From NCBI GenBank assembly GCA_017610005.1, contig JAFCCU010000002.1:18118-82117 (forward strand): a stretch of 64,000 bases of DNA, in the 5' to 3' direction. This DNA comes from Candidatus Woesearchaeota archaeon (GTDB lineage: Archaea; Nanobdellota; Nanobdellia; Woesearchaeales; B29-G15). Each line of letters begins with the position of its first letter. Positions within the stretch are counted from its first letter, which is position 1. Made by a program: the position numbers and the translations under genes. The notes under the pieces were generated by a model. That model was not told where the DNA came from and did no database searches. It saw only the letters and a list, made by a program, of their open reading frames with translations. This document shows positions 20,907-50,863 of this stretch, piece by piece.

Positions 20907-20929
20907 AAAACAATTGAGTATTTAATATT

Positions 20930-21075
20930 TTTCAAAAACCACCAGTGAGTTCACTTGTGGCCTGTTGAAAATAGTGGTTTTTGATGCTCAGAATTCTACC
21001 CACAAGTGGCATTTTTGAGCACACAGATTCCACTTTGACCACCCATCTGGGGTGGAATTCTGTTGTTTTAAAGAA
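20930..21075 (-). repeat. MITE-like intergenic repeat, copy A (reverse orientation)
   Basis: Shares termini TTTAAACAACAGAATTCCACCC ... CACTGGTGGTTTTTGA and internal blocks (gaattctgagcatcaaaaaccac; tgtgctcaaaaat) with copies at 27762..27932 and 54199..54485. Confidence 0.75.
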
Positions 21076-21198: not shown

Positions 21199-21546
21199 AT
21201 GAAACCTCTTGCTGCAGAATCCCTAGACCAGGGGAGATATTATAATCTAATGGCCGGCGAAGATATTGTTATGGCAAAATACATTCTTGAAAGTGGGGAA
21301 TATTTACATTTTTTAAGTGTCTCTAAATTTCCTAAAAAAAGATCTGCTGTAATTGAATATAGAGTTCCCCTCAGATATGCGAAAGTAAATTGGAGAGGAA
21401 TAATAAGTGGAGGGATTGAAAAAATAACAATTGCCATGTGGTCGCCTACAACCCCATTATCTCCATCAGACTTATCTACACAAGTCTTGGAGACAGCAAA
21501 AAGAATATCTCTGCCCAAAATGCGGGCCTTGCAATCTCTAGGTTAG
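21199..21546 (+). CDS. Hypothetical small protein (115 aa); weak call
   Basis: ATG ORF in a ~900-nt intergenic region. A 92-aa antisense ORF overlaps it, so the coding status is uncertain. Confidence 0.25.
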   Translation: MKPLAAESLDQGRYYNLMAGEDIVMAKYILESGEYLHFLSVSKFPKKRSAVIEYRVPLRYAKVNWRGIISGGIEKITIAMWSPTTPLSPSDLSTQVLETAKRISLPKMRALQSLG

Positions 21547-21623
21547 AACAAGAAGTTACAAATTATTCTGATTTATCGAACACTTTATACCCTAGACTAT
21601 ATACTCTAGACTATTATTATGGG

Positions 21624-21768
21624 GTGTAAGGTTTAGGAGATAATATTTTTCACTCCAGACTCCAGACCCCAGACCCCGTACTCCAGATTGTTGTAGGGTA
21701 TAAGGTATAAGGTTTAGGAGATATTATTTTTCACTTCTGACTTTAGACTTCAAACTTCAGACTGATAG
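21624..21768. repeat. Tandem ~70-nt duplication upstream of the first surface-protein gene
   Basis: Two copies of ggtataaggtttaggagataatatttttcact-C/T-c-A/T-gact... Each ends in octamer-family units (ccagactccagacc / cttcagact). Confidence 0.7.
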
Positions 21769-21772
21769 AATA

Positions 21773-21782
21773 CTTTAAATAT
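21773..21782 (+). promoter_or_regulatory. Putative TATA box for surface-protein gene A
   Basis: ctttaaatat ~35 nt upstream of the ATG at 21814. Confidence 0.3.
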
Positions 21783-21813
21783 AAGTTAACCAGAAATAAC
21801 CCTTGTGATCACC

Positions 21814-23841
21814 ATGATAAAAAAGAGCTGGTTAATTTTCTTAGTAGCACTGCTACTTACATCAACAATAGTTACTGCAGGAGATTATTTATTTCCTGGC
21901 GCTTTTGAAGATAATTCTTTTTGGATCGTTTCAATTGAGAGAGATGATGCAATCCTCCCATGCCTTGGGATGATTGAGATTGGATCTGATGCAATTTTGG
22001 TTTCTCCAGAAGGAGAAGAACATCCTACTGAGATTATTTATGGGCCTCATTTCTTTTCTGAAACCTTTATGAATCGGTGGAGAATTGGTGCTGCAGGATT
22101 AAAATTACCTGAAGAACTATTGGGAGAAGGATGGCAACTTAAGTTAACTTGTGAAACCGAAACAGTAAATTGTGTTGACCAATTGTTTTACAGAGATGAT
22201 GATGGGGTTGAAGAAGAAAAATTACCTGGTTTTGCTTATGGTATTTATGAAGATGAACTACAAAGGGTTGATAATATTTGTGAAGATGATATTGTAACTC
22301 AAGCAGTTTGTAGTGATGACAACATAAGTGTTGAGATAGTAAATCTTGAATGCCCAGCAGGTTGCGCTGGGGCTCACTGTGCTCCTGTATTTGTATGCAT
22401 TGATTCAGATATTGATGAAGAAGATTTTACTGTTATTGCTGGTTTTGTTAATATAACAAGGTATGATGAGGAATATAATGAAACCATTTCTATTGCAGAA
22501 TCTTTAGATGTTTGCGATACTAGGGCATTAACAGAATATTATTGTGAAGATGAAACTGCAACAGAAGCAACTTCTGTTGTAATTTACTGTGATCCTGAAT
22601 GTGCTGACGAAGGATCTTGCATGACCCCAGAAGTTGTTATTGATTGGGATAATATCTCTGGATGTTGTTTAAACAAATTAACAGAGCCTTGCAGATATTA
22701 TGATTCGGCTTTAGAGTGTTGCCCAGTAGAAGGTTATGAAGATGTTGTCGATACCTTTGCGCCTCAAAATCAAGAGGAATGTTTGGCTGACTTCTTTTTC
22801 GAATCAGATAATGCTGAAGCATGTGCAGAGATGGGTCCTGAAGATGCAGAAAATTATAGACTTTGTGAAAAAGGATGCTGTTGTGAATATACGACTGCGG
22901 CTGTTGATTGTGGGCCTGAAGAGGAAACTTGTGAATCAACATTAACGGTTACTGCGGCAAATCAATTATCTAGTGTAGCATGTGCAGTAATTGAAGGCCA
23001 CAGGGCTTACTACACATTTGAAACTATTGAAACTTGTTCAATTGAGTCTTGCTCTGAAAGATTAGGAGGAATAGCTGAAAATCAACCTCCTGTATTTGAG
23101 TTATTAGAAGGTCAAATTGATGTATGCCTTGGAGATGAAGTTAAGTTTGATGTTCAGGCAATTGACGCCGATTCAGACTTTTTAATTTATTCAACTGGAG
23201 TTTTACCTGAAGGTGCAACCTTTCAACAAAAAACAATTCCTCAATATGTTGATGAAGGTTATTCAAGTGAGGGGTATGTCTTTACGTGGACTCCAAGTGA
23301 GGTAGAATCAGTTACTCTTAACTTTTCTGTAACTGATAATCTTTATGAAGTCTCACAAGGAGTTGTAATAAATATTAGTGATTGTAATCCAGTCACAATC
23401 AGCGAATGTAAACCAATGACTCCTCCAAATAATAATACAATTTGTTTGGGAGATAAATTCTCATTTTGTTTAGGGATGGGAGAAATATCAGCAGATTCAT
23501 TGCCTGAGGGAGCAACTTTTAACCAAAATTGCTTTGAATGGGAACCAACTGAAGAAGGCCAATATACTGTAACTTTCGTAAAGGAAGATTGTGAAGAACC
23601 ATTAAATCAAGAGCTGTTTGTACAAGATTGTGATAATGGTTTGGGAGAGTGGATAAAGGGTTTATTTATTGGGGCAGGCATTGCCGCAATAATTGTAGCA
23701 ATCCTTGCTTTTATTGTATGGAAAGGGGTCCTGACGATTGTTTGGTTTGGAATTTCCCTTGCAACAGCTCCTTTGCTATTTATGTCCATATTTGTAGCAA
23801 TCGGAGCAATAGTGGGCGCACTGGTCTGGGGGCTTCTCTAA
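21814..23841 (+). CDS. Cys-rich modular surface protein A: signal peptide, CxDxDGG-type Cys repeats, GCC...GCCC signature module, two He_PIG/cadherin-like domains, C-terminal double TM anchor
   Basis: ATG at 21814 (the ORF-track GTG at 21805). MIKKSWLIFLVALLLTSTIVTA signal. Signature module ~22660-23050 (GCCLNKLTEPCRYYDSALECCPVEGYE...EACAEM...GCCCEY). LPEGATF...W(T/E)P He_PIG-like motifs. C-terminal hydrophobic helices. Confidence 0.8.
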   Translation: MIKKSWLIFLVALLLTSTIVTAGDYLFPGAFEDNSFWIVSIERDDAILPCLGMIEIGSDAILVSPEGEEHPTEIIYGPHFFSETFMNRWRIGAAGLKLPEELLGEGWQLKLTCETETVNCVDQLFYRDDDGVEEEKLPGFAYGIYEDELQRVDNICEDDIVTQAVCSDDNISVEIVNLECPAGCAGAHCAPVFVCIDSDIDEEDFTVIAGFVNITRYDEEYNETISIAESLDVCDTRALTEYYCEDETATEATSVVIYCDPECADEGSCMTPEVVIDWDNISGCCLNKLTEPCRYYDSALECCPVEGYEDVVDTFAPQNQEECLADFFFESDNAEACAEMGPEDAENYRLCEKGCCCEYTTAAVDCGPEEETCESTLTVTAANQLSSVACAVIEGHRAYYTFETIETCSIESCSERLGGIAENQPPVFELLEGQIDVCLGDEVKFDVQAIDADSDFLIYSTGVLPEGATFQQKTIPQYVDEGYSSEGYVFTWTPSEVESVTLNFSVTDNLYEVSQGVVINISDCNPVTISECKPMTPPNNNTICLGDKFSFCLGMGEISADSLPEGATFNQNCFEWEPTEEGQYTVTFVKEDCEEPLNQELFVQDCDNGLGEWIKGLFIGAGIAAIIVAILAFIVWKGVLTIVWFGISLATAPLLFMSIFVAIGAIVGALVWGLL

Positions 23842-23930
23842 CTTTTTTTTAATTAACTCCTTTATGGAGACCATTTTAATACGAAATATTTAAAAGAACA
23901 AGCTAACTTTCGTATTCTTGGTGATTATTT

Positions 23931-24362
23931 ATGGCAATTGTAGGATTTGGATTCACAAAAATACTTGTTGAGAAGAAAAAACAGTTAACCTCAAAAATTA
24001 ACATTAAAAATAATATTGCAATAAAAGATATTGTAGAACATGATTTTCATGATGCAGGAAAAGATAGGCAAGGCCTAAAATTTATATTTGAGTTTATATC
24101 AAGTTATGATCCTGGAGCAGCCGAAATAAGACTTCTTGGAGAGGTTTTTTTTATTGCTGAAACAAAGAAATCTCAAGAAATATTAAACACATGGAAGAAA
24201 GACAAGAAAGTAACAAAAGAAGTTATGCCAATTGTCTTAAACTATGCTCTGTCAAGATCTAATGTTATGGCAATTTCATTATCAAAAGATGCTGGACTTC
24301 CACCTCCTTTGCCCATGCCAAGGGTAAACAATGAAAAGGCCGATAACTCTTATATTGGCTAA
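23931..24362 (+). CDS. Hypothetical cytoplasmic protein (143 aa) between surface-protein genes A and B
   Basis: ATG ORF with no signal peptide and no motif recognised. Confidence 0.4.
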   Translation: MAIVGFGFTKILVEKKKQLTSKINIKNNIAIKDIVEHDFHDAGKDRQGLKFIFEFISSYDPGAAEIRLLGEVFFIAETKKSQEILNTWKKDKKVTKEVMPIVLNYALSRSNVMAISLSKDAGLPPPLPMPRVNNEKADNSYIG

Positions 24363-24397
24363 AAGTTTATATATTTGTTATTCAATTTTTTATCTTA

Positions 24398-26581
24398 ATG
24401 ATTAGATATACTGCTTTCTTCATAGCATTTTTATTAGCAGTGTCAATTGCTTCGGCAGCTTGCACTGATACAGATAATGGTAAAACTTACTATGAACTGG
24501 GTAATTGCCAGGCCCCAAATGGATACCCTGGTGATGATGAATGCTGGGACTGGCAAATTGTTAGAGAAAAATTCTGTCAAGATGACGAATCCTGCTGGTT
24601 TTATGATCACCCCTGTAGATATGAATGTGAAGATGGGGCTTGTATTCCTAATCCTAACGAATATTTGATTCCTGTAGGATATGATGGCAAGTGGTACGGC
24701 GCAAGATATCCAAGTAAAAATGACAATATCCCACCTTGCCTTGCATCAGTTAATGAGGGAGATTCAATCAACCTTGTAACAGCAGAATGGCTGGAATTTC
24801 CTGCAAGGGTAGAAGAGGCGCCTCATTCATTTAGGGAGCATATGAATGATTTCCAGATTGTTATTACTGATAATTCAGTTTCAGAGGGACAAAGGCAAGG
24901 GTTAATATTTTCCGCAAGTTTAATTTGTGAAGATGATAGGATGCAATGTATTGATCAGGCAACAAAGGTTAATACTAATAGATACCCAGATGATGGTGAC
25001 TGGATGCCAGGCTTCGCATTTGGAAATTTTTCAGATGAAATTGTGAGAAAAAATAATTATTGTATTGATGATGAGAACTTAACAATATACACATGTGCTG
25101 ATAAATACAATATTCAAAATGTAACAGTTGTATGTGAAAATGGATGCAGTAATGGTCATTGTAAACCTAGATACTTCTGCGAGGATTTTGATGAAGGTCT
25201 TGATCTAAGAACCCCCTCATATGTGGAGATTACAATTGAGCTCGATGGAGAAGAGGATTTTGTTAGAGTATATGAAGATTATTGCAACGGGGATAAAAAA
25301 ATAACAGAGAGAACTTGCAATAGAGATGGAACCTACAAATCAAATATTGAATCATGCTCTTGTGAGGAAGAAGACTGCTGCGATGAAGGAGCATGTGTCA
25401 GTGGGGGGAGCATTAGTGATGTTCCAACAACAATAATCCCTCAAGACCCTGCAGGAACTGAAGATTCTGGATGTTGTTTAAACCCAAATAGGGAAGCATG
25501 CGCCTATTACGACCGGGCGGAAAATTGCTGCTTGGAATGGGAAGATGAATATTTAGTGGAGGGGGGCCCAGTTGATCAGGCAGATTGCCTTGCAAATTAC
25601 TTTTTTGTCTATGAGACAGATGATGCTTGTGCAGTAATGGGAGAAGCATACAATTCATTTGCAAATTATGAGATGTGTTCTTATGGGTGTTGTTGTGTCA
25701 AGGGCCCCATGGGAGATGAAGACTATGTTTATACTGCAACAATTGAAAGAGGGGCTCTTTGTATGGAAACAGATGATAAAATGTGGAGTCCTTTAGCAGA
25801 CATAATTAATTGCGATGAAGCAACTTGTAGGGGGATTATTGCAAATGGTGGGAGCATCAGTGATATTCCCACTATTGCTGACCCTATTATTGATGACCCA
25901 ATTATACCCTCCTCTACTGAACCAATCGAAGATGAAGTTTGCGCTAACGAGGAATTTAAATTATGTTTAGATACTATTGATCCCTTGGGGGGATTTTATC
26001 ACTTCCAAGCAACCTCTGTTCCTTCAGGGGTTGTATTTCATCAAGATCAAGGTTGTATTGTTTGGACTCCAATAATGGAGAATTTGGGTTGGAATATAAT
26101 GAAATTTCAAGACACTGAAAAGGGCAAGGAGGCCCAGATGGGAATAAATGTTTTGTCTTGCTGTCCTGAATTTGTTGAATTACCAAATCAAGAGTCTTGC
26201 ATTAACCAAAATTTAGAATTTTGTTTAGAGGCAGAACCCAATAATGGGAATTTAATCTTTTCAGCAACAACTTACCCTACTGGTGCTACTTTCACTCCCC
26301 TATCGGCTTGCTTTTTATGGAAACCAGAAAAAGAAGGACATTACACAGCTGATTTTTCAGTGTCCAACGGAGAATGTGGAGATCAAATGCAGGTTTCAAT
26401 TTATGCTGGCTCTTGTGGGGCAGAAATCAGCAGCGAGGATGGAGGAATTGATTGGGGACAAATGTGGGTGGGGATAGGTTTAGCGGTGTTGGGTATACTT
26501 GCAATAGCTTTAAGCTGGATTGCTTTCCCAGTATTTTTCGTTATAGAAGCAATTGCAATTGCAATTATGGTATTTTCATAA
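24398..26581 (+). CDS. Cys-rich modular surface protein B (closest paralog of A)
   Basis: Signal MIRYTAFFIAFLLAVSIASA. Signature module ~25469-25840 (GCCLNPNREACAYYDRAENCCLEWEDEY...DACAVM...GCCCVKG). Two He_PIG-like motifs (VPSGVVFHQDQGCIVWTP; YPTGATFTPLSACFLWKP). C-terminal TM. Confidence 0.8.
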   Translation: MIRYTAFFIAFLLAVSIASAACTDTDNGKTYYELGNCQAPNGYPGDDECWDWQIVREKFCQDDESCWFYDHPCRYECEDGACIPNPNEYLIPVGYDGKWYGARYPSKNDNIPPCLASVNEGDSINLVTAEWLEFPARVEEAPHSFREHMNDFQIVITDNSVSEGQRQGLIFSASLICEDDRMQCIDQATKVNTNRYPDDGDWMPGFAFGNFSDEIVRKNNYCIDDENLTIYTCADKYNIQNVTVVCENGCSNGHCKPRYFCEDFDEGLDLRTPSYVEITIELDGEEDFVRVYEDYCNGDKKITERTCNRDGTYKSNIESCSCEEEDCCDEGACVSGGSISDVPTTIIPQDPAGTEDSGCCLNPNREACAYYDRAENCCLEWEDEYLVEGGPVDQADCLANYFFVYETDDACAVMGEAYNSFANYEMCSYGCCCVKGPMGDEDYVYTATIERGALCMETDDKMWSPLADIINCDEATCRGIIANGGSISDIPTIADPIIDDPIIPSSTEPIEDEVCANEEFKLCLDTIDPLGGFYHFQATSVPSGVVFHQDQGCIVWTPIMENLGWNIMKFQDTEKGKEAQMGINVLSCCPEFVELPNQESCINQNLEFCLEAEPNNGNLIFSATTYPTGATFTPLSACFLWKPEKEGHYTADFSVSNGECGDQMQVSIYAGSCGAEISSEDGGIDWGQMWVGIGLAVLGILAIALSWIAFPVFFVIEAIAIAIMVFS

Positions 26582-26606
26582 TTTTTTAACATTAAATTTT
26601 GTAAAC

Positions 26607-27684
26607 ATGAAAAAAGTAATTCTCTTGCTAATTTTTCTTTTAAACATTTACACAGTCTCAGCAGGATGCTGCATCAATCCAAATAGCTACGCTTGTTAGA
26701 TAGTTGATACTCAATGTTGCCCAACAGATGGAGAATACTCTTCTCCTTTTGGCCCCTCTGGACCAAATGACTATAAGACTTATTGGTTTTATGATTCAAC
26801 ACATCCAGAAGCATGCGCAATAATGGGGCTTGAGTCAAGCCCAAATTACCAATTATGTGAATTTGGATGTTGCTGTGAGCTAATGCCAGAGGGGATAACG
26901 AATGGAAAGCCTATGGCCCAGGCAGCTTGCATGGATAATCATCAACGTTGGCACACTTTTGATCAAATACCAGATTGTTCACCAACAAATTGCGCAGCAA
27001 AATTTAACACAAAAGCTGTTGGAGCAACAACTACTACAATAAATTTAGAAACAGCAAGAAGGAGAACTGAGGAATCAGGAGTTGAAGCAGAAGACTTCTT
27101 TGAAAGAGTGCAAGCATGTATTGGAGAACAGTTAGTGTGGTGTCACGATTGGTATATAATTGAGGAAGGTAAAATCCTCCCAGTGGGCGCAATAAGGGTG
27201 AATGATTGCTTTCATTGGACTCCTGACCAGGAAGGAGAATATCAAATAAGTTTAGGATATACGTTTGATGTGCCAAGTTATATAGAAAGAATGTTGCCAG
27301 AACCCACTTTGAATATTTCAGTGGATTACTGTGGTGATTGCTTTCTTATTGCAGAGATTGCTGATGAAAATACTGCAGAAGGGATATGATCCCTTTTATG
27401 GTTGAAGCTGCAGATGAAGAAGGGGATTTACTCACTTACTCAGCATTAAATTTACCAGAGGGCGCAATTTTCAAAACTGATATTGGATTATTTTTTTGGC
27501 AGAGCAAGGATGCAACACCCGGCATATATGAATTAGAATTTGTTGTAACAGATGGAAAATGCACTGTTTTGAGAAAGTAACTCTTGAGATTGAAGAGTGC
27601 GGCGACACATCAATAGTATCACAGATTCTTGCTATGCTTGCTATAATTTTTGGTGGGGCAACTGTTTATACAATTGCTGCATGA
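26607..27684 (+). pseudogene. Decayed paralog C of the Cys-rich surface-protein family (in-frame TAG plus at least 2 frameshifts)
   Basis: Signal peptide and GCCINPNSYAC then TAG at 26697-26699, exactly where paralogs have the conserved Tyr (C-x-Y-x-D). The frame then continues through CCPTDGEY...EACAIM...GCCCE. Frameshifts near 27386 and ~27575. The He_PIG-like and C-terminal TM remnant (ILAMLAIIFGGATVYTIAA) are in other frames. Confidence 0.75.
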
Positions 27685-27761
27685 GTTGGTTTAATTGATG
27701 CCCCAGCCCATGTAAAACAATATGGTAAATTTCTCGCTGATACAACTGGTCTTGGAACTTT

Positions 27762-27932
27762 TTTAAACAAAAGAATTCCACCCTTCTATTGAAGGGTGGT
27801 CTAGGTGGAATTCTGTGTGCTCAAAAATTACCTATGATCGGTGGAATTCTGAGCATCAAAAACCACTCAACAGCGAGCAAGCTTTTCAACATGCCACCAA
27901 TGTATTCACTGGTGGTTTTTGACAAGCAGTTG
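27762..27932 (+). repeat. MITE-like intergenic repeat, copy B
   Basis: Same family as 20930..21075 and 54199..54485. Lies between the pseudogene and surface-protein gene D. Confidence 0.75.
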
Positions 27933-27985
27933 CAATGCATTTTAATAGAAAAATTTAAATGTTAAAACCTTAAATAATAATAACA

Positions 27986-29587
27986 ATGAAGAAATTTGTA
28001 TTTGTAGTCATTCTTTTTTTACTCTTTTTAACAGCGTGTGACAAAGATACAGATGGTGATGGAATTTCTGATACTGAAGATAATTGTATTGGTATTAGAA
28101 ACTCGGATCAAATAGATTCAGATAAAGATGGCTGGGGGGATCCATGCGATTTTAATGAAGATCTAAGTGAAACACTTTTATATTTTTCCGCAACCTGGTG
28201 TACTTATTGCCATGAACAGTTACCAATTATTCGAGAACTTGATCAAGACTTTCCAGATTTAGAAATTCAATATCTTGATTTTGATGCAAGGCAAGATTTA
28301 GTTAGGGAATATGGTATTGTGGGTGTGCCTCATTATGTATTTATAAAAGGAGATTGTTGGAAAAAAACAAGAGGTACAACAAGTTATTCAGAATTAGTTA
28401 ATTGGATGGGAAAGGGTGCTTGCGCAAGATCAGCAGCAGTCCGTAGCCAAGGAGTCAATTTGCAGTCTGAAGTCATAAGTCAGAAGTCACTCAAACCCCA
28501 AACCCCAAACCCCAAACCCCAAACCTTACCAACTGGTTGTTGTATAAATCCTAATGAAAATGCGTGTGTTTATTCTGATGATATTGATAAATGTTGCCCA
28601 GTAGATGGTTATGAAGAATCAATAGGACCGCAATCACAAGCTGAATGTAAAGAACATTGGTTCTTTCCCCACGCAACAGAAGAAGCATGCAGCGTAATGG
28701 ATCCATTAACTTATGAAAATGCACAATATTGTGAATTTGGGTGCTGTTGCGAGGCTACCCCCATAGGTATAGCTGCATTTGCCTCAGAAAAAATCAAGTG
28801 TAATGATTATTGGGGAAGTTATGAAGAATTAAATTGCACGGTAAATGATTGTTCTAAATTTATTGAAGGGGGGGCAACATTAAAGACTGCTTCTCGTGTT
28901 TCTCCAATGGCAACAATCTCAGTTACTCAAACAGAAGATGAAACTTGCGTTGATGAATTGTATATTTTTTGTACAGTAAATCCTTTAGCTACTGAGATAT
29001 CAAATTTACCTGCTGGCGCAATAATTACTAACAACTGCATTGAATTCACCCCCACTGAAGCCCGTAGTTATTCAATTACGTTTAGAGAGGGAGATTATTA
29101 TTCAGAGGTACTAAACTTAGAGGTAATAGACTGCTCTGATCCGCCAGTTTTAGGATTCTTGCGAAATCGGAATGTATACAAAAATCAGATATTTAGTATT
29201 AGGGTACGTGCTACTGGGACAGGAGATTTGACATATGTAGTAGAGGATATGCCTGATGATGCCAAATTCAATCCAAAAAAATTAAAATTTTCTTGGATTC
29301 CAAGAGAGGAGAACGTTGGCAAACAATATAATGTTAAATTTATTGTGATAGATTCAAATGGGAGAACTGATGAAAAAACAGTTGAACTTAATGTTAGAAA
29401 TTATTCTTTCATGTGGATAGCTGGTTTGTCATTGGCCCTTGCAGGTTTACTTTACTTAGGTGCATTATTTTCCGGATTGCTTGAATCTCTAACATGGTTT
29501 TCCTCTTCTGCATGGATATATGTTGCAGGGGCTTGTATTGCGATATCCTTTATTCTGGTCGCGCTTTATTTTCTTTCGGGATTATGA
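27986..29587 (+). CDS. Cys-rich modular surface protein D with thrombospondin type-3 repeats and a thioredoxin-like CxxC domain
   Basis: Lipobox-like signal (FLLFLTAC). TSP3 repeats DKDTDGDGISDTEDNC / DSDKDGWGDPCD. Trx-fold motif LLYFSATWCTYCHEQ...GVPHYVFI. Pro/Thr linker encoded by repeats. Signature module ~28535-28860 (GCCINPNENACVYSDDIDKCCPVDGYE...EACSVM...GCCCEA). He_PIG-like LPAGAIITNNCIEFTPT. C-terminal TMs. Confidence 0.8.
   Translation: MKKFVFVVILFLLFLTACDKDTDGDGISDTEDNCIGIRNSDQIDSDKDGWGDPCDFNEDLSETLLYFSATWCTYCHEQLPIIRELDQDFPDLEIQYLDFDARQDLVREYGIVGVPHYVFIKGDCWKKTRGTTSYSELVNWMGKGACARSAAVRSQGVNLQSEVISQKSLKPQTPNPKPQTLPTGCCINPNENACVYSDDIDKCCPVDGYEESIGPQSQAECKEHWFFPHATEEACSVMDPLTYENAQYCEFGCCCEATPIGIAAFASEKIKCNDYWGSYEELNCTVNDCSKFIEGGATLKTASRVSPMATISVTQTEDETCVDELYIFCTVNPLATEISNLPAGAIITNNCIEFTPTEARSYSITFREGDYYSEVLNLEVIDCSDPPVLGFLRNRNVYKNQIFSIRVRATGTGDLTYVVEDMPDDAKFNPKKLKFSWIPREENVGKQYNVKFIVIDSNGRTDEKTVELNVRNYSFMWIAGLSLALAGLLYLGALFSGLLESLTWFSSSAWIYVAGACIAISFILVALYFLSGL
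28461..28527. repeat. In-frame simple-sequence tract inside gene D: octamer-family units followed by (AAACCCC) x 4.7
   Basis: cagtctgaagtcataagtcagaagtcac then aaacccc x4 plus aaacc (28493-28525). It encodes QSEVISQKSLKPQTPNPKPQT. Confidence 0.85.
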
Positions 29588-29648
29588 GCTTAGATATACT
29601 TAAGGATTTATAAAAACCTTTTTAAGTTCTCTGATATAACCTAAACAA

Positions 29649-31037
29649 ATGCTAAGAGTATTTAACACATTAACAAGGAAGAAAGAAGAGTTTATCCCAA
29701 TAAAACAAGGAGAGGTAAGAATGTATTCTTGCGGACTTACTGTTTATGGATTTGGGCATATTGGAAATTTTCGCGCGTTTATTGCATCTGATTTAATTTC
29801 TAGGTATTTAAAATATAAGGGATATAAGGTTACAAAGGTAATTAACATAACAGATGTTGATGATAAAACAATCAGGGGAGCAATTAAAGAAGGAGTCTCT
29901 TTAAACAAATACACTGAAAAATATATTAAGGGTTTTTTTGATGATATTAATACATTAAATGTTGATCCTGCTAATTATTATCCTAAGGCAACTGATTATA
30001 TTAAAGAGATAGTTGAACTTATTGAAAAATTAAAGGCTAAAGGCCATACTTATGAACAAGATGGCTCAATTTATTTTAAGATTTCAAGCGATAAAAATTA
30101 TGGGAAATTAGCGCATTTAGATTTTTCTAAATTAGTTGATAACGCGCAAGGACGGTTAGATTCTGATGAATATGATAAAGATAATGCAAGAGACTTTGTA
30201 TTATGGAAGGGTTACAAAGAAACAGATGGCGAAATATTTTGGAATACAAAGCTTGGCAAGGGAAGACCTGGATGGCACATTGAATGTTCTGCAATGTCAA
30301 CCAAATTATTGGGTGACTCTTTTGATATTCATACGGGTGGAGTTGATTTAATATTCCCTCACCACACAAACGAAATAGCTCAAAGTGAAAATGCAACTTG
30401 CAAACATTATGTGAAGTATTGGCTTCATAATGAATACTTAAAAGTTGAAGGCGAAAAAATGTCAAAGTCTTTGGGGAACTTTTTCACATTAAAAGATTTA
30501 TTAGAAAAAGGACTTGATCCAATAGCAATTCGTTATGAACTTTTAGCAACAAATTATAGAATGCCATTAAATTTTACAATAGATGGCGTAGGGGCATCAA
30601 AGGTTGCAATTGAAAAATTAAATAATTTTGTGTGGGAATTGACTGTTGCAAAAGAAGGAAAGTTATCAGAAAATATTGAAGAATTAATCAAATCAGCAAA
30701 AGATAACTTTGAATCTGCAATGGATGATGATTTTAATATATCTAGGGCACTTGCAAGTATATTTGACTTTATGAAATCAATCTTTAAAGAAGGATTTACA
30801 TCTGCTGATTCAAAACTAATTCTAAGTTTCTTAAAAAGTATCGATTCTGTGCTAGGAGTTATCTCTTTTGAAAGAGATACTGAGATTGATAAGAATATTG
30901 AGCAACTAATTGAACAAAGAAATATTGCAAGAAAAAATAAAGACTTTACAACAAGTGACAGAATTAGAGATGATCTGCTCAAGAAGGGAATTGAACTTTT
31001 AGACGGGCCAGAAGGCACTAAATGGCGCAAAAAATAA
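29649..31037 (+). CDS. cysS: Cysteinyl-tRNA synthetase
   Basis: 462 aa class I aaRS with MYSCGLTVYGFGHIGNFR (HIGH), KMSKSLGN, and the CysRS length and anticodon-binding tail. Confidence 0.9.
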   Translation: MLRVFNTLTRKKEEFIPIKQGEVRMYSCGLTVYGFGHIGNFRAFIASDLISRYLKYKGYKVTKVINITDVDDKTIRGAIKEGVSLNKYTEKYIKGFFDDINTLNVDPANYYPKATDYIKEIVELIEKLKAKGHTYEQDGSIYFKISSDKNYGKLAHLDFSKLVDNAQGRLDSDEYDKDNARDFVLWKGYKETDGEIFWNTKLGKGRPGWHIECSAMSTKLLGDSFDIHTGGVDLIFPHHTNEIAQSENATCKHYVKYWLHNEYLKVEGEKMSKSLGNFFTLKDLLEKGLDPIAIRYELLATNYRMPLNFTIDGVGASKVAIEKLNNFVWELTVAKEGKLSENIEELIKSAKDNFESAMDDDFNISRALASIFDFMKSIFKEGFTSADSKLILSFLKSIDSVLGVISFERDTEIDKNIEQLIEQRNIARKNKDFTTSDRIRDDLLKKGIELLDGPEGTKWRKK

Positions 31038-31065
31038 ATACTAGGGTTGTTGATTCTTAAGTATT

Positions 31066-32469
31066 GTGAAAAAAGAACTTATATATTTTTTAATGGCATT
31101 AGTATTATCTTTCTCAGTTGTTGGTGCTGGTTGTGATGGTTCAACCGGATTATGTGATGCTCCAGAAGAAGGACAAGAATGTATTTACGAAACAGATTAT
31201 GGATTTAATCTATACTTAAAAGGAACTTGTTCTGATGGGCAGATTGATCCAGTGACAGATAAATGCTCACAAGAAAGAGTGGGCGTGCCAGTTCAAATTG
31301 AAGAGTATTACTGCAATACTTACGGGCAGTGCCACATGATGCAAAAATGGTGCCCCAATGGGTGTTTAAATGGGGAATGTTTGCCTTCTGGTATACCTAC
31401 AACTTCTGCTACTCCTGGATGTTATGATGAAGATGGGGGTATTTTTTACGATCGACAAGGTACTTGCACAGATAAATTTGGAACCCACACAGAAAGTTGT
31501 GATTATGCAAAAGGGTATAGAATAACTGAATATTATTGTGTAAATGTAACTGGGGGAGATGGATGTGGGGGAGGAGTTTGTGGGGATGATGATGTTCCTG
31601 AATTCCGATGCATGGCGCAAGGCACAAGATGTAGTGGGGGTTATTGTGAGAGGGGCGCTTGTACAACTGAACTTTATATGGATAGTGCAACTCCTGGTTG
31701 TTGTTTGAACCCTAAAACAAGACCTTGTGATTATGTTTCTAATATTAGATCTTGTTGTCCTTCATCTTGGCAGGGATATGCTGCATGGGATGAACCTGGA
31801 CCAAAAGGGATATTTGATTGTGCAGCTGCTTGGTTTTTCCCTTCTGACTCTCCAGAGGCTTGTGCAGCCATGGCAGAAGCTGAGCATCCAAAAGCAGACA
31901 TGTGTGGCTTTGGCTGTTGTTGTTACAAAACTCCTAGTGATGAAATAAGGTCAGACCAACAAACCCAGTCAGAATGTACTGGCACCGATAAACAATGGGT
32001 AAATTTTGGTACAATAACTGAATGTACCCCCCAATATTGCCATGGTTACTTTGATGGGGGCACGCTTGCAGATGACCCAGATGTTCCAACCACAACTACC
32101 AGTGTGGAATACACTCCTGGCTCACCTCAAGAAGATGATGATGGGGATGGGGTAGTGAATGGGATTGATAATTGCATAAATACATTCAATTCTCAGAATA
32201 ATATTGATAATGATGAGTTTGGAGACGCATGTGATCCTGATATGGACAATGATGGAATAATAAATGAGGAAGATGAATGTCCTCTTGATATTACAAAATC
32301 AGTTAAACCTTGCAGTGACAAACAAATAGCCCCATTGTGGTTTTTGGCAGGAGGCGCATTAGCGGGATTAATTGCATCTTTTTTTATTCCTGGCGCAACA
32401 ATTATTATTGGATTGCTTATTGGTGCGATTTTAGGATTAATTGCATTATTATTGGTGAGTTCATTATGA
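31066..32469 (+). CDS. Cys-rich modular surface protein E (two CxDxDGG-type repeats, signature module, TSP3 repeats, C-terminal TM)
   Basis: GTG start. Signal MKKELIYFLMALVLSFSVVGAGC. Signature module ~31696-32050 (GCCLNPKTRPCDYVSNIRSCCP...EACAAM...GCCCYK). TSP3 DDDGDGVVNGIDNC...DPDMDNDGIINEEDEC. TM FFIPGATIIIGLLIGAILGLIALLLV. Confidence 0.8.
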   Translation: MKKELIYFLMALVLSFSVVGAGCDGSTGLCDAPEEGQECIYETDYGFNLYLKGTCSDGQIDPVTDKCSQERVGVPVQIEEYYCNTYGQCHMMQKWCPNGCLNGECLPSGIPTTSATPGCYDEDGGIFYDRQGTCTDKFGTHTESCDYAKGYRITEYYCVNVTGGDGCGGGVCGDDDVPEFRCMAQGTRCSGGYCERGACTTELYMDSATPGCCLNPKTRPCDYVSNIRSCCPSSWQGYAAWDEPGPKGIFDCAAAWFFPSDSPEACAAMAEAEHPKADMCGFGCCCYKTPSDEIRSDQQTQSECTGTDKQWVNFGTITECTPQYCHGYFDGGTLADDPDVPTTTTSVEYTPGSPQEDDDGDGVVNGIDNCINTFNSQNNIDNDEFGDACDPDMDNDGIINEEDECPLDITKSVKPCSDKQIAPLWFLAGGALAGLIASFFIPGATIIIGLLIGAILGLIALLLVSSL

Positions 32470-33605
32470 AAAAGTATTATACTAAGAGTAATAATGCAAA
32501 TGATATCATGAAACAAATCATATATTTTTTAATTGCAGTTTTATTAATTTGGAATGCTACTGCTACAGCTTATGATCACAGTTGTACTGATAGTGATGGG
32601 GGTAAGAATTACCATATTAAAGGTAATTGTGTTGACTATGACCAATCTGAGATGGACTACTGCAATGGTTATAATTATATCCAAGAGTGGTATTGCTTTT
32701 CTGGCTGTATGGACTTCCCCATGGAAGCTAGTTCAGAATTGCAAGGCCATGATCCTAATTGTATCTGGGGTTGTTATGATGGTAGATGCGCAAGTAATGG
32801 AGAAATCATTGAAAGTTTAGGTTTAATTTACACTCCGGGAGAGTGCCTTGATACAGATGGAGGAATTGATAAATTCACTGATGGAATTTGTATAGACTCA
32901 GATGGGAAGTATTACATCGAACAATGCAATAAGGGGAATGTAGAGGAATATTATTGTGAAAGCAATATGTGCAAAAGAGCATTTGGAGAACAGGATACTT
33001 ATTGTCCTGGTGGAACAGGTGAGATGCAGGATCAGGGAGGATGTGAAGCTGGCGCTTGTAAGAAAGTTGATGAAACCTTAAGTGGGTGTTGTTTTAATCC
33101 TGATACTGTTGCTTGTGAATGGATAGATAAAAGAGATGACTGCTGTCCTGTTTTTGGAGATTATGAAAAAGATTTGCCTTTTGGGCCAGATAAGACAACT
33201 GATTGCATTAATAATTGGTTCTTTAAAACTGAAAAGAGCGAAGAATGCCCTCCTAAATTAGATGTGTTTGAAAATAGTAAACATTGTCTTAATGGTTGCT
33301 GTTGCTTTAGAGATCCTGAAGGAGTTGCTCACGCAACTATTCTTCCCCAATTAGTTTGTAAATGGTGGCAGCCTTTTGAAGCTGTAGAAGAATTTGGTTG
33401 TGTTGATTCATATTGTGAAGAAATTGTGCCAATTGTAGAAGCAGGGATTGTTCCGCCTAAAGCTACAACTACAATTTTACAAGAGTCTCCGACAACAATA
33501 AATATCCAAGAACCAGAAGGAACTGGACTAAATACGTTTCAAATCTCAATTATAATTTTTATTATCCTTGTATTGTTCATCCTTGCAGCCCTCTTTTTGC
33601 TGTAA
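32466..33605 (+). CDS. Cys-rich modular surface protein F
   Basis: ATG at 32466 overlaps the stop of gene E (ATGA), so the two are translationally coupled. The ORF-track N-terminal extension from 32337 is an artefact. Signal MKQIIYFLIAVLLIWNATA. Signature module ~33084-33420 (GCCFNPDTVACEWIDKRDDCCPVFGDYE...GCCCFR). C-terminal TM. Confidence 0.8.
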   Translation: MKKYYTKSNNANDIMKQIIYFLIAVLLIWNATATAYDHSCTDSDGGKNYHIKGNCVDYDQSEMDYCNGYNYIQEWYCFSGCMDFPMEASSELQGHDPNCIWGCYDGRCASNGEIIESLGLIYTPGECLDTDGGIDKFTDGICIDSDGKYYIEQCNKGNVEEYYCESNMCKRAFGEQDTYCPGGTGEMQDQGGCEAGACKKVDETLSGCCFNPDTVACEWIDKRDDCCPVFGDYEKDLPFGPDKTTDCINNWFFKTEKSEECPPKLDVFENSKHCLNGCCCFRDPEGVAHATILPQLVCKWWQPFEAVEEFGCVDSYCEEIVPIVEAGIVPPKATTTILQESPTTINIQEPEGTGLNTFQISIIIFIILVLFILAALFLL

Positions 33606-33659
33606 AATTGGGAAAATTTTATATACCTTGGACATAACTTTTATATCCATAGATAACAA

Positions 33660-35078
33660 ATGTGCAAAATGAAAAGATTAATACCCCTGTTTATATTCTT
33701 ATTTGTAATTAGTTTTGTGTATGGTGGGACATACAATCCTCCAGCTCAAGGAATTGGGGCAATGACTTCTGCTTGGTGTATTGATGGAGATGGGCCCGAC
33801 ACTGGAGATTTTAGTACTCATCCAGATTATAGTGGAGACACAAACTGGGCCCCAGAACCAAGAAAAGTTAAAAGTTTTTGTACAAGCCAAATAGATTACC
33901 CTCATCAAAGAGAAGATTCTTGTGTTGATGGATTGTACTCTTTAATGGAATGGGAATGTACTGGCTGTGCAGGTGGGGGCAGTCAAGAATGCGATAACCC
34001 TTTAGATACTTGCGAATTTGGGTGTGTTCATGGGGCATGTTTAGATTCAAGACAAGATTTATTGAACCACATTTATGGGGCAGATAGCCCTGCTTCACTT
34101 TGGTTTGAAGGCCAGTGTAAGGATTCTGATGATCATGATGGGTTTTTATATGATAAATATGATGGAATGGATTATACCGTCCAAGGGGTCTGTGTTGATA
34201 GTAGAGGAGATGTATTTATTGATTATTGCAATAAAGGGCATTTACAAGAATATGTTTGCACTACCGGGGGAGACTGCACTCCACTTGATGAACCAGATGA
34301 TAATGAATGTGACTTGTGTAAGAATGGTAAGTGTATTACTCTTGATAAAACAGTTAGTGGATGTTGCTTAAGTGAGTTTACAACTGGGTGTGGGTATGTT
34401 GATAAATTAGATCAATGCTGTCCAGATTATGGCACTTACGCAGGTGATGATGAGACTGGTCCCACTAGCCCCGGAGATTGCCGTGATAATTATTTTTATG
34501 AAAGAGAAGATACAGAAGCTTGCAGTTTAATTCCTGATACTTTTGAAAATAAAGATTTATGTTTTAGTGGCTGCTGTTGCGATCTTGATACTGAAGGTAA
34601 TCCTCTTGGAAAGCCTTTAAAAAAAGTTGAATGTAACTTATGGCTTGCAGATGGTGTAATGGAACAATTTGGGGGATGTAATCCAGAAAATTGTTTAGTC
34701 GCATCAGGGGGGCAATCATTAATTTCAGGAGAGAGGGATAGCGATCAAGATGGGGTTAATGACGCAGAAGATAATTGTATTTATATCCCAAATCCAATAA
34801 ATGATGATGGGATCCAACTAGATTCAGATAATGATGGTTTGGGAGATGCCTGCGATCCAGATGATGATAATGATGGTATTTTGGATGTAGATGATGACCC
34901 AATAGTCCCTGAAACTTTTATGGAAAAATTATTTGCTTCAGAATCTTTCTGGGGGATACTTATTGCAATATTTGTTGTCCTTGCATTAATATTTTTTACT
35001 TCATTAACTTGGATACCAATTACCCTAATAGGTATTGGAATAGCACTAGCAGGAGTTTTAATTGAGTTTTTGGGGTGA
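33660..35078 (+). CDS. Cys-rich modular surface protein G (signature module plus TSP3 repeats plus C-terminal TM)
   Basis: Signal MKRLIPLFIFLFVISFVYG. Signature module ~34359-34700 (GCCLSEFTTGCGYVDKLDQCCPDYGTY...EACSLI...GCCCDL). TSP3 DSDQDGVNDAEDNC...DSDNDGLGDACDPDDDNDGILD. Confidence 0.8.
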   Translation: MCKMKRLIPLFIFLFVISFVYGGTYNPPAQGIGAMTSAWCIDGDGPDTGDFSTHPDYSGDTNWAPEPRKVKSFCTSQIDYPHQREDSCVDGLYSLMEWECTGCAGGGSQECDNPLDTCEFGCVHGACLDSRQDLLNHIYGADSPASLWFEGQCKDSDDHDGFLYDKYDGMDYTVQGVCVDSRGDVFIDYCNKGHLQEYVCTTGGDCTPLDEPDDNECDLCKNGKCITLDKTVSGCCLSEFTTGCGYVDKLDQCCPDYGTYAGDDETGPTSPGDCRDNYFYEREDTEACSLIPDTFENKDLCFSGCCCDLDTEGNPLGKPLKKVECNLWLADGVMEQFGGCNPENCLVASGGQSLISGERDSDQDGVNDAEDNCIYIPNPINDDGIQLDSDNDGLGDACDPDDDNDGILDVDDDPIVPETFMEKLFASESFWGILIAIFVVLALIFFTSLTWIPITLIGIGIALAGVLIEFLG

Positions 35079-35131
35079 ATTATTAACATTTGCCCACAAA
35101 GTTTAAATAACATTTTTTTTATTTAATTAGA

Positions 35132-37624
35132 ATGAAGTATTCACTTTCTTTACTCCTTTTCTTACTAATCCCCCTAACCTTCGCCGCAACACTTGAGACT
35201 TATGAGGGCGGAGCTGTTGACCCAGCAGGATTTTCTATGAGTGCTAGTGGCGCGCAAACACTTAGCATTAGTAAAACTGTTTATACTGACAGCACAATTC
35301 CCTTACAAATCTCCAATTCAATATATGGTTTTTCAATTTCAGGCAACTTCAATTTACAAACAGACTCAGCAACATTAAGAGTGATTTTAATAGATAGTAA
35401 TGACCAAGAATACTTGGTTTTTGAAGCATATAACTTGCTTTATGGCCAAGGTTATGGCTCATTTAATTACATCTGCGAAGAAACCTGCTTACTTCATGGA
35501 GTTAACCCAAGTAATCTAAAAGTTGAAATTGATGGTGCAACAATGGATATAGCTAATGCCCATTATATAACCCAAAGGCCTCTTTCTCCGCAGGCCATTA
35601 GTACACAGAAAAGTGATAATCAACAATCTCAAACAAATTTTAAAATCCAAAAGTTAAATGAAAAAGCAGAAGGCTGGATTGCTGGAGAAACTGAGGTGGG
35701 GAATTTATTATATTCAGAAAAAAAAAATCTTTTTGGAGGAGAAAAACTTCCTAACTTGCAAGGATTTGAATATTATAAAGGAGGAGTATTCTCTTTTGGC
35801 AAAAGCACAACAGTTAATCAAAAAAATTTAAACTTCCAGTTTCCAATTAAATTTGATTGGCGTGACCGCCATGGCAAGTCTTGGATTCCCAATATTGAAT
35901 CTCAAGGTCATTGTGGCGCTTGCTGGGCGTTTGGAGTATCATCAACAGTTGATGCAGTAATTAATTTGTATTATAATCGAAGGTTAAACATTGACATGTC
36001 TGAACAACACATTATTTGTGATAAAAAGGGTTCGTGTGTGGGTGGAGCTTGGCCACAAAGAGCTTTAAACCTTTTTAAAAATGAGGGAATTGTTGAAGAG
36101 AATTGTATGTATTATTCTGCAAGGGATGATGATTGTGATAGGTTATGTAATGAATGGCAAAAATCTCTTTGGAAGATTGAGGATTACCATCTTGTATTGG
36201 GATCAGATGATTCAATAAAAAAAGCATTAATTGAGCATGGGCCTTTAACTTTTGCGACTGCATTTTGGGATGGGAGATCAATGGAAGGTTCAAATTACGG
36301 AAATTTCCCGGATGGTCCAAGGCCTTGGGCAAATCATGCGATGAGTCTTATTGGATATGAGACTGGTTCATTAGAGACTATTTGGATTGTTAAGAATTCC
36401 TGGGGCCGTACCTGGGGCCAAAATGGTTATGGCTATATTCAACTGCCTTTTATTCAAAGATGGTCTATATACTGGATTGAACATCCTTATTTGGAATATG
36501 ATCCTGATAGATTTGAAGTGAGATGTGAGGATAAGGATGGAGATAATTATTGTAATTGGGGAATAATTGGGGATAAACCTGTTACTTGCCCAGAGAATTG
36601 CCTTCAATTAAAAGATTGCGATGATTCAAATCCTCACTTTGGCCCATACTCAGATACATTTGAATGTATTGAAATAACCTCCAGCAGGGCAGGAATTTCA
36701 GTAAAGAATGATTCAAAAGGGTGTTGTGTAAATCCCTATAGCGAGGCATGTGTGATATCCACAAAAAATCAGTGTTGCCCAGATGAAGGATATGGGGTTA
36801 CAAAAGATTTGGGACCAATTTCAAGAGAAGAATGTGAATCTCATTTTTTTTACCCTTCTGAATCAGCTGAAGCATGCGTGCTTATGGATTTATCAAGTTT
36901 TCCAAATGCTAATTTTTGTAATGCTGGTTGCTGCTGCACTAGATTTGAAGATTCTAAATTTTCTTTCCCTCTGCTGGAGGGTGAAGAAAAAATAAAGGCT
37001 CAATGTTTAAATGATTATCAAAGATGGTATACTTATCAGGAAGTAGGAGGATATTGTTCTAATTGGGAATGTGGGAATATTGCTTCAGGCATAGCCAGTA
37101 CATCAGGAACTCTTTATGGATCGCATCCGATAGATGAGTTTAATAGGCCACTTATTTCTTCTGCTATAGAATACAAGGGAACTGTGGGTGAAGAGTTAAT
37201 GTTTAGAATTGAGGCCACTGGGGCAAAACCAATTACTTTTTTAATGTTAGAATTTGAAAAGCCAATCCCTAACGGTGTTGAATTTAATCCAATCACTGGG
37301 GTTTTTAAGTGGACTCCAAAAAAAGCAGATGTTTTTACATTCAAGGTTGTAGCTCAAAATAAGAATGGTTATGATTCTGAATTGATTCAAATAGATATTT
37401 TTGATAATTCTCCTGCAGGGAATAACCTTATGTGGGGGTTAATCTTAGCAGGATTAGCTCTTTTTGTGGCAATTATAGGGATTGCTTTTTATGGGCTTAT
37501 TGGTTTTGTTGCAGGGTTTTTGGGGCTTGCAGGGCTCTGGGGAATGATAATTTCTGGAGTAGCAATAATATTGGCTGCACCTTCAGCTGGTTTTATTTTA
37601 GGATGGATATTGGGTTTTTGTTAG
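35132..37624 (+). CDS. Cys-rich modular surface protein H carrying a papain-like (C1A) cysteine peptidase domain
   Basis: Signal MKYSLSLLLFLLIPLTFAA. C1 motifs ~35850-36450: FDWRDRHG, QGHCGACWAFG (catalytic Cys), ANHAMSLIGYE (His), VKNSWGRTWGQNGYGYI (Asn). Signature module ~36719-37080 (GCCVNPYSEACVISTKNQCCPDEGYG...EACVLM...GCCCTR). He_PIG-like IPNGVEFNPITGVFKWTP. C-terminal Gly-rich TMs. Confidence 0.85.
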   Translation: MKYSLSLLLFLLIPLTFAATLETYEGGAVDPAGFSMSASGAQTLSISKTVYTDSTIPLQISNSIYGFSISGNFNLQTDSATLRVILIDSNDQEYLVFEAYNLLYGQGYGSFNYICEETCLLHGVNPSNLKVEIDGATMDIANAHYITQRPLSPQAISTQKSDNQQSQTNFKIQKLNEKAEGWIAGETEVGNLLYSEKKNLFGGEKLPNLQGFEYYKGGVFSFGKSTTVNQKNLNFQFPIKFDWRDRHGKSWIPNIESQGHCGACWAFGVSSTVDAVINLYYNRRLNIDMSEQHIICDKKGSCVGGAWPQRALNLFKNEGIVEENCMYYSARDDDCDRLCNEWQKSLWKIEDYHLVLGSDDSIKKALIEHGPLTFATAFWDGRSMEGSNYGNFPDGPRPWANHAMSLIGYETGSLETIWIVKNSWGRTWGQNGYGYIQLPFIQRWSIYWIEHPYLEYDPDRFEVRCEDKDGDNYCNWGIIGDKPVTCPENCLQLKDCDDSNPHFGPYSDTFECIEITSSRAGISVKNDSKGCCVNPYSEACVISTKNQCCPDEGYGVTKDLGPISREECESHFFYPSESAEACVLMDLSSFPNANFCNAGCCCTRFEDSKFSFPLLEGEEKIKAQCLNDYQRWYTYQEVGGYCSNWECGNIASGIASTSGTLYGSHPIDEFNRPLISSAIEYKGTVGEELMFRIEATGAKPITFLMLEFEKPIPNGVEFNPITGVFKWTPKKADVFTFKVVAQNKNGYDSELIQIDIFDNSPAGNNLMWGLILAGLALFVAIIGIAFYGLIGFVAGFLGLAGLWGMIISGVAIILAAPSAGFILGWILGFC

Positions 37625-47605: not shown

Positions 47606-47767
47606 CTTTATTAGCCTTCCATTACCTTAAAAATAACTTACTACAAATTTTCCGGAAGATTTTCAAAGCAACTGCTAAAAATATATTTTTAATAGTAACC
47701 CTATTTTTTTAATAGCATTTAAATACCCTCCCCTGGTTTTTTAATATCTCTTAGAGGTGTGGAAAAA

Positions 47768-50808: not shown

Positions 50809-50863
50809 TGCTCTGAATGTGTTCCGAGCAAACACTTTAAAAACAATTTTACCAGAGGTTGAC

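Follow-up and report, generated by a model that had tools for sequence, protein, structure and literature searches.

Partner and substrate recognition by ultra-small uncultured archaea is poorly understood, and candidate molecules are few. In Nanoarchaeota, hypothetical cell-surface proteins were found to have the highest densities of non-synonymous single-nucleotide polymorphisms and were proposed to function in host interaction (Jarett et al. 2018, PMC6142677). In this study, we analyzed a stretch of 64,000 nucleotides (nt) from a Candidatus Woesearchaeota archaeon (GenBank assembly GCA_017610005.1, contig JAFCCU010000002.1, positions 18,118 to 82,117 of the forward strand; hereafter the window, numbered from its first letter), which contains eight loci of one family of cysteine-rich modular genes. 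Like the surface proteins of Nanoarchaeota and other DPANN archaea (PMC6142677), the products of this family are uncharacterised, predicted to be exported and faster-diverging than the rest of the genome, and host recognition has been proposed for both without direct evidence. This likeness is one of behaviour, and cysteine is mentioned 0 times in that paper. Uncultured archaea commonly have orphan surface-protein families, and modular surface proteins with many paralogs are nothing unusual; the 14-Cys domain shared by this family, and the scaffold that carries it, appear to be new to the libraries and literature searched.

We interpreted the region as a lineage-specific tandem expansion of rare archaeal proteins, which would be exported, membrane-tethered, disulfide-rich modular ectoproteins serving in surface recognition and as ecto-enzymes, and assigned this reading a probability of about 0.6. 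Two of its parts were well supported: the genes are predicted to encode modular ectoproteins that are exported, tethered to the membrane and stabilised by disulfides and that share an undescribed core domain, and the array appeared to be a lineage-specific, fast-turning-over expansion. Open reading frame (ORF) calls placed the eight loci, comprising seven intact genes (A, B, D, E, F, G and H) and pseudogene C, at 21814-37624 on the plus strand, which holds every substantial ORF across 21199-37624. Spacing between genes was 25-89 nt, except for 295 nt 3' of C, and the GC content of the region was not atypical. A preliminary description of the window had reported an array of eight co-oriented genes. 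Eight plus-strand loci were indeed present at essentially the reported starts, but they are not contiguous, as an ORF of 143 amino acids (aa) and the gene for cysteinyl-tRNA synthetase (CysRS) are interleaved with them. The Cys-rich nature of the products, also reported there, was reflected in a Cys content of 6.0%, compared with 1.04% in the 32 other ORFs of the window. The family genes and their signature modules are listed below, with E values from a profile hidden Markov model (HMM) and with Ig-like standing for immunoglobulin-like and TM for a transmembrane helix.

21814-23841, plus strand: gene A, 675 aa; behind a signal-like N-terminus, a beta-rich head of unassigned type, the signature module, a pair of Ig-like (He_PIG) domains and a double hydrophobic anchor at the C-terminus
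22645-23082, plus strand: module of A; HMM E 9.5e-31; an insertion with an extra Cys pair gives 16 Cys in total
24398-26581, plus strand: gene B, 727 aa; predicted signal peptide, three CxDxDxG modules, signature module, two Ig-like domains, hairpin anchor
25454-25855, plus strand: module of B; HMM E 1e-33
26607-~27690, plus strand: pseudogene C; predicted signal peptide with the signature module immediately behind it, Ig-like remnant, truncated anchor
26664-27023, plus strand: module of C, located by alignment; interrupted by TAG, with HMM E 7.6e-15 for the fragment after it
27986-29587, plus strand: gene D, 533 aa; LTAC signal, TSP3, thioredoxin, Pro-rich linker, signature module, two Ig-like domains, hairpin anchor
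28520-28879, plus strand: module of D; HMM E 2.6e-32
31066-32469, plus strand: gene E, 467 aa, GTG start; predicted signal, two CxDxDxG modules, signature module, TSP3 repeats, hairpin anchor
31681-32067, plus strand: module of E; HMM E 9.1e-39
32508-33605, plus strand: gene F, 365 aa; predicted signal, two CxDxDxG modules, signature module, Thr/Pro linker, single TM
33069-33443, plus strand: module of F; HMM E 1.1e-30
33660-35078, plus strand: gene G, 472 aa; predicted signal, two CxDxDxG modules, signature module, TSP3 repeats, hairpin anchor
34344-34721, plus strand: module of G; HMM E 3.6e-30
35132-37624, plus strand: gene H, 830 aa; predicted signal, beta-rich region, papain-like protease, signature module, Ig-like domain, multi-helix anchor
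36704-37102, plus strand: module of H; HMM E 3.7e-32

The signature module, which spans about 120 aa and has 14 conserved Cys, occurred once in each of the eight loci and followed the pattern GCC-x8-C-x8-CCP...GP..C...FF...AC...C..GCCC...C...C.x4.C. When aligned, the eight window modules showed approximately 30-37% pairwise identity and 17 invariant columns, and those of the intact genes reached HMM E values of 1e-29 to 1e-37 with a profile of the wider family, so that the single shared module proposed for all eight loci was recovered. No other ORF with the module was detected when a profile of the wider family was run against all ORFs of the 64-kb window. The module had no match in Pfam (even at E<=10), NCBIfam or PHROGs, and its profile had none among PDB sequences at E<=10. 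A confident AlphaFold2 (AF2) model was obtained for the module of D, with a predicted local distance difference test score (pLDDT) of 94.1 and a predicted template modelling score (pTM) of 0.81, and no fold match to the module model was found among PDB structures. These results agreed with the earlier remark that the family could not be tied to any described protein family. In the literature on Cys-rich, thrombospondin or surface proteins of DPANN archaea and Woesearchaeota, no description of the module was found either. Thus, the module appears to be an alpha/beta domain of about 120 aa that is new to the libraries and literature searched.

Relatives of the module were rare. A word-index homology search with its profile returned nothing, and an exhaustive profile search of 1.84e9 cluster representatives was needed to find them; 38 proteins matched, 31 at E<=1e-10, and six of the 38 were the window's own products. 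Most proteins of the family contained exactly one signature module, whose position varied from the N-terminal tip to a membrane-proximal site. The module was not of low complexity, matched no well-characterised family in the libraries searched and was present in related genomes. Every genomic context of the module that we inspected was archaeal, and the sole taxonomically labelled genome with the module was 'Candidatus Woesearchaeota archaeon B29_G15'.

Across 36 aligned modules, 14 Cys columns were conserved, the Cys total was even in 33, and C6 and C56 were lost together in two sequences. P0030 and P0032, two homologs outside the window, each have two tandem modules, and the first copy lacks exactly C6 and C56; this co-loss may be useful covariation evidence for one disulfide. 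Pairing was inferred from the parity of Cys counts and from co-loss, not from model geometry. Because of the even totals, the co-loss of C6 and C56 and the added pair in A, the sequences point to a module held by seven disulfides rather than to one that ligates metals.

The combination of an N-terminal signal and a C-terminal hydrophobic anchor, already proposed for the array, was predicted by hydropathy in all seven intact genes, each of which encodes a signal-like hydrophobic N-terminus and a hydrophobic C-terminal tail, and hydrophobic termini were seen in most homologs as well. The tails were Gly/Ala-rich, 26-70 aa long and ran to the last residue (aa 610-675 for the anchor of A); in most members and most homologs they consisted of two helices joined by an [F/W/I]-P turn. 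No NCBIfam CTERM match, of the kind expected for an archaeosortase-type sorting signal (PGF-CTERM and relatives), was obtained in the seven proteins, and the tails, being mostly two helices that end hydrophobic without a basic tail, were unlike a PGF-CTERM-type signal. The signal of D ends in ...LFLTAC-DKD, in which L-T-A-C matches the lipobox pattern [L/V/I][A/S/T/V/I][G/A/S]C at the signal-peptide end, as given in PMC12462473, so D may be lipidated, judging by this pattern only; the other members had no such motif. Among distant members, two in locus L014 (3966-6380 and 2621-3940) as well as P0038 and P0029 have the C-terminus GCSFVPG followed by one hydrophobic helix and a basic tail, a predicted signal that resembles the archaeosortase type and not the hairpin anchor of the window.

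Outside the signature module, the members differed by accessory domains, which were shuffled as the preliminary description had stated. A papain-like protease in H, thioredoxin plus TSP3 in D and TSP3 in E and G, all named in the preliminary description, scored above Pfam cut-offs. The domains located precisely are as follows.

23119-23373 and 23437-23598, plus strand: Ig-like domains of A
28151-28408, plus strand: thioredoxin-fold domain of D (aa 56-141); PF00085, 44.7 bits against a cut-off of 23.5, 1.5e-11; active-site-type motif WCTYC
35843-36442, plus strand: papain-family (C1) protease domain of H (aa 238-437); PF00112, 128 bits against a cut-off of 20.7, 7.4e-37

The catalytic Cys, His and Asn motifs of H were intact (QGHCGACWAF, NHA and NSWG), and its PDB relatives included cathepsins C, F, H and K (best match 2e-24). 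For the thioredoxin domain of D, NCBIfam matches to TIGR01068 and pdi_dom were sub-threshold. TSP_3 (PF02412, cut-off 25 bits) scored 27.2 bits in D (3.1e-06) and 26.8 in both E and G, and its Asp-rich motif DxDxDG..D..D.C was located in D and G. He_PIG domains had been described as usual in the family. This held for A (PF05345, 35.8 bits, 1.1e-08; gathering score 24), but H (23.2 bits), D (22.0 bits, 2.3e-4) and B (16.5 bits) fell below the gathering score, and only BLAST or jackhmmer connected the Ig-like regions of B, D and H with A. The family also shares another module, CxDxDxG, which occurred 41 times in it and was 60-85 aa long; its AF2 model was all-beta (pLDDT 95.7), and a word-index search with its profile gave only four weak matches of about 110 aa. 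B also has a beta-rich region of unassigned type, as A does.

All-against-all BLAST showed that A and B are paralogous along their whole length (27% identity, 696 aa) and that E, F and G form a second subgroup (F versus G, E 3.5e-36), while C, D and H aligned chiefly via the module and downstream regions. Translational coupling of E and F had been suggested on the basis of an ATGA overlap. The overlap of the E stop with an alternative F ATG at 32466 is present in the DNA, but coupling is doubtful because both the F ortholog P0016, which aligns from residue 15 of the longer ORF, and the paralogous start of E, with which the start region of F is related at the DNA level, align to the ATG at 32508. 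The upstream start would add a hydrophilic extension of 14 residues that is absent from the ortholog. The alignments thus make 32508 the more likely start of F.

Orthologs were recovered on short metagenomic contigs, and a closer alignment subset provided one genome locus and three metagenome loci, a number too small to survey copy number by itself:

P0004: ortholog of B, 45% identity, full length
P0009: ortholog of D, 33% identity, same architecture as D
a gene in L007: ortholog of E, 46% identity
P0016: ortholog of F, 46% identity
P0020: ortholog of G, 33% identity
P0011: ortholog of H, 34% identity, beside CysRS and ValRS in L006

Identities of the flanking housekeeping proteins were 65-69% for CysRS and 66-68% for ValRS, IleRS and ABCE1. 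As the family orthologs shared only 33-46%, the family diverges markedly faster than its flanks, which, together with copy numbers from 0 to 8 among relatives, bore out the earlier description of a rapidly evolving family. Comparison of copy number and synteny, a survey that the description had recommended, revealed the same housekeeping backbone in the related genomes. The gene order was family member, D-like gene, CysRS and E-like gene in L007, and CysRS, H-like gene and ValRS(-) in L006; in a more distant relative (contigs P0007/P0040), two family genes stand directly before ValRS(-)-ABCE1. In L009 (GCA_964407035.1), the order was S12 - DAGK - IleRS ... small ORF - CysRS - unrelated gene - ValRS(-) - ABCE1; no family gene was found at this backbone locus, and one member is encoded elsewhere in that genome. 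The numbers of family genes at the locus were thus 0, 1, 2, at least 3 and 8, with CysRS at the same backbone position in L006, L007 and L009. A distant archaeon (L014) has a separate tandem array, in which members of 439 and 804 aa lie behind a 75-Cys protein. Since L009 keeps both the small ORF and CysRS without the family, these two should be regarded as backbone genes:

23931-24362, plus strand: orphan ORF of 143 aa, interleaved backbone gene outside the family
29649-31037, plus strand: CysRS, interleaved backbone gene outside the family; tRNA-synt_1e 2.9e-108, DALR_2, CysS_C

Pfam, NCBIfam and PHROGs gave no match to the 143-aa ORF, a conserved orphan that has six relatives besides itself, none of them annotated. 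It adjoins CysRS in L009 and lies upstream of the B ortholog in L005. A motif resemblance had suggested a SecB-like export chaperone, which had no profile support, and the ORF was rejected as a component of the family because synteny identified it as a CysRS neighbour that is present where the family is not (L009). CysRS lies amid proteins of 4-8% Cys here and in three related contigs. We also considered whether CysRS is functionally linked to the Cys-rich genes and rejected this reading, as L009 keeps CysRS in place without family genes; the co-location is therefore best explained by insertion into a conserved backbone.

The reading frame of pseudogene C is broken by a TAG at 26697 and shifted twice, near 27386 and near 27577, and its conserved Cys42 is replaced by Tyr, so the one decaying copy noted before was confirmed. 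TAG is the ordinary stop of three other window genes, which indicates a standard genetic code. Downstream of C lies one of three copies of a repeated element, found by blastn and alignment:

27761-27925 (plus strand), 20929-21072 (minus strand) and 54199-54484 (plus strand): repeated non-coding element of about 165 nt

The third copy is longer and has two insertions. The first two are mutually inverted and bracket ORF115, A, the small ORF, B and C. Hairpins of the element are conserved, one formed by GAATTCCACCC..GGGTGG and the other by CCACCAGTG..CACTGGTGG, the latter followed by TTTTT in a terminator-like end. No Rfam match was obtained at E<=1. Repeats resembling miniature inverted-repeat transposable elements (MITEs) had been reported as embedded in the array; the repeated element is real, but it is non-coding and only one copy lies within the region, and it could be a MITE or a small-RNA family. 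The simple-sequence tracts mentioned alongside it were found inside D and upstream of A. In D, the stretch 28455-28525 contains a heptamer tract and a (CAAACCC)x4.9 tract (28492-28525), and encodes the linker PQTPNPKPQT. Upstream of A, a 57-nt direct repeat with 81% identity (21618-21674 and 21699-21755) carries (ACTCCAG)n-type heptamer tracts, to which the heptamer tract of D is related in inverted orientation.

The remainder of the window was clearly archaeal, as judged from split RpoB and RpoA, FttA/aCPSF1, ABCE1 and an apparently intron-containing tRNA. The tRNA gene (7610-7733, plus strand, 124 nt; Rfam 50 bits) was missed by ARAGORN and presumably bears an intron; tRNA introns are typical of archaea. 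A phage or mobile origin of the family was also considered and rejected, since PHROG matches were limited to generic thioredoxin and peptidase domains and GC content was unremarkable. At 5740-7551 (plus strand), a protein of the amidohydrolase family (2.7% Cys), which has a TSP_3 repeat at its C-terminus but no signature module, is probably another surface enzyme with the same type of TSP3 stalk. A lamin-tail-domain (LTD) protein is encoded next to a GlmS-GlmM-GlmU-like cluster for synthesis of UDP-N-acetylglucosamine (UDP-GlcNAc; 46568-47605, minus strand, and 47759-52051, plus strand), a neighbourhood with a possible bearing on glycosylation of the envelope. The P0040 contig also encodes an LTD protein, near ABCE1.

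Under our preferred reading, the proteins would be exported via an N-terminal signal peptide (a lipobox-type signal in D) and anchored on the outer face of the membrane by the Gly/Ala-rich helix-Pro-helix tail. Their ectodomains may be viewed as three layers. A variable head would be formed by CxDxDxG beta modules (B, E, F and G), a beta-rich region (A and B), the protease (H) or the CxxC thioredoxin (D); an invariant core would be provided by the signature module locked by seven disulfides; and a stalk would consist of Ig-like (He_PIG) domains, calcium-binding TSP3 repeats or a Thr/Pro linker. Such a common surface scaffold could present diverse binding and catalytic heads, with recognition of, or adhesion to, other cells or polymeric substrates as the likely role and surface proteolysis by H in addition. 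A possible role for D is that of a membrane-anchored thiol-disulfide oxidoreductase outside the cytoplasm, which would assist the folding of its many-cysteine paralogs. The family would have been inserted and duplicated around the backbone IleRS ... small ORF - CysRS ... ValRS - ABCE1, with copy number turning over quickly between related genomes and C currently decaying. A recognition or adhesion role was inferred because of the TSP3 repeats, Ig-like stalks, beta tips, protease and thioredoxin, together with fast divergence, gain, loss and decay. Attachment to a host cell is plausible in view of the domain types, and among the candidate partners or roles we ranked a host cell above an environmental polymer and the latter above an envelope-structural role. 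Several points weigh against this interpretation. The adhesion role was drawn from the domain repertoire (TSP3, Ig-like) alone, signal peptides and topology were assigned by hydropathy and motif inspection only, the oxidoreductase role that D may have is only hypothetical, and the statement that the core has no known fold applies to PDB structures only.

Other explanations were less probable to different degrees. The proteins might constitute a substrate-scavenging toolkit, in which anchored exo-enzymes and polymer-binding modules harvest environmental peptides or glycans without host contact; protease H, the carbohydrate-binding-like CxDxDxG modules and the nearby amidohydrolase-TSP3 protein would then belong to it, and we consider this unlikely on the whole. 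That the family forms or decorates the cell wall or an S-layer-like coat, with the signature domain as a lattice or oligomerisation unit, seems considerably less likely still. Exactly one signature module and a conserved anchor in most proteins would suit such a coat, as would the presence of GlmS, GlmM and GlmU for UDP-GlcNAc synthesis in the same window. However, the eight paralogs are divergent (approximately 30-37% identity between modules), the module shifts from the tip to the membrane side, and 0 to 8 copies among relatives whose housekeeping genes are about 65% identical would be a poor fit to an essential structure.

The cysteines themselves allow a further reading, in which all 14 would ligate metals or Fe-S clusters and the module would be an extracellular redox or electron-transfer domain. 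Dense CC, CCP and GCCC motifs in the module and the thioredoxin domain fused in D are in its favour, but the even Cys totals (33/36), the C6/C56 co-loss and the extra pair in A form a disulfide signature, no ferredoxin- or cytochrome-type motif or Pfam match was found in the module, and the predicted location is extracellular, all of which make it very improbable. A bolder version of the recognition hypothesis would regard the 14-Cys domain as a new fold and as the recognition or docking core of a DPANN-type host-interaction apparatus, the locus as a diversification hot-spot and D as a dedicated foldase. We regard this version as doubtful; if it were true, lectin-like, protease and oxidoreductase heads would be shuffled onto the core at the IleRS-CysRS-ValRS locus, tracking host surfaces.

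With the lineage-specific expansion of surface ectoproteins as the favored reading, the locus offers a compact set of seven candidate ectoproteins on one scaffold. It also provides a new, confidently modelled and predicted disulfide-rich domain, detected in just 38 among 1.84 billion protein clusters and lacking Pfam, NCBIfam and PDB relatives, which is small enough for expression and mapping. The locus is also a natural experiment in how genes are gained and lost around a fixed set of housekeeping genes, with none to eight copies among relatives, and the co-encoded anchored thioredoxin suggests a testable route of extracellular disulfide formation in archaea. Should the family serve only as generic envelope decoration, the finding would shrink to a new domain-of-unknown-function entry.

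Finally, we compared the individual parts of the family with known systems. D, E and G share TSP_3 repeats with adhesive proteins of the thrombospondin/COMP type-3 repeat kind, including the myxobacterial MtsC (NF047638). Their scores against the MtsC equivalog (43.1, 36.2 and 22.9 bits) were far from its cut-off of 350 and confined to the TSP3 region; only the repeat is held in common, whereas the anchor, heads and signature module are unrelated. Over aa 238-437, H resembles cathepsins, dipeptidyl peptidase I and other peptidases of the papain family (C1), including their catalytic motifs. In contrast with these enzymes, its protease is one head on an anchored scaffold that also holds the 14-Cys module and an Ig-like domain, an architecture seen in one other cluster only (P0011). 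D resembles DsbA/DsbE/ResA/PDI-type oxidoreductases in having a thioredoxin fold with CxxC behind a secretion/lipobox signal, whereas its scores for the NCBIfam equivalogs and subfamilies were far below the cut-offs and its domain is fused to the family scaffold. The CBM14/peritrophin-A chitin-binding modules (Avr4, Der p 23 and Blo t 12) were a further candidate for comparison. The variant surface proteins (VSPs) of Giardia are a Cys-rich protein family of a eukaryotic parasite. The analogy with the present family is one of architecture only, with no homology expected and no sign here of mutually exclusive expression or antigenic switching. In both families the genes appear in tandem or in several copies, and the proteins are rich in Cys, vary in their ectodomains and keep a conserved membrane anchor at the C-terminus.

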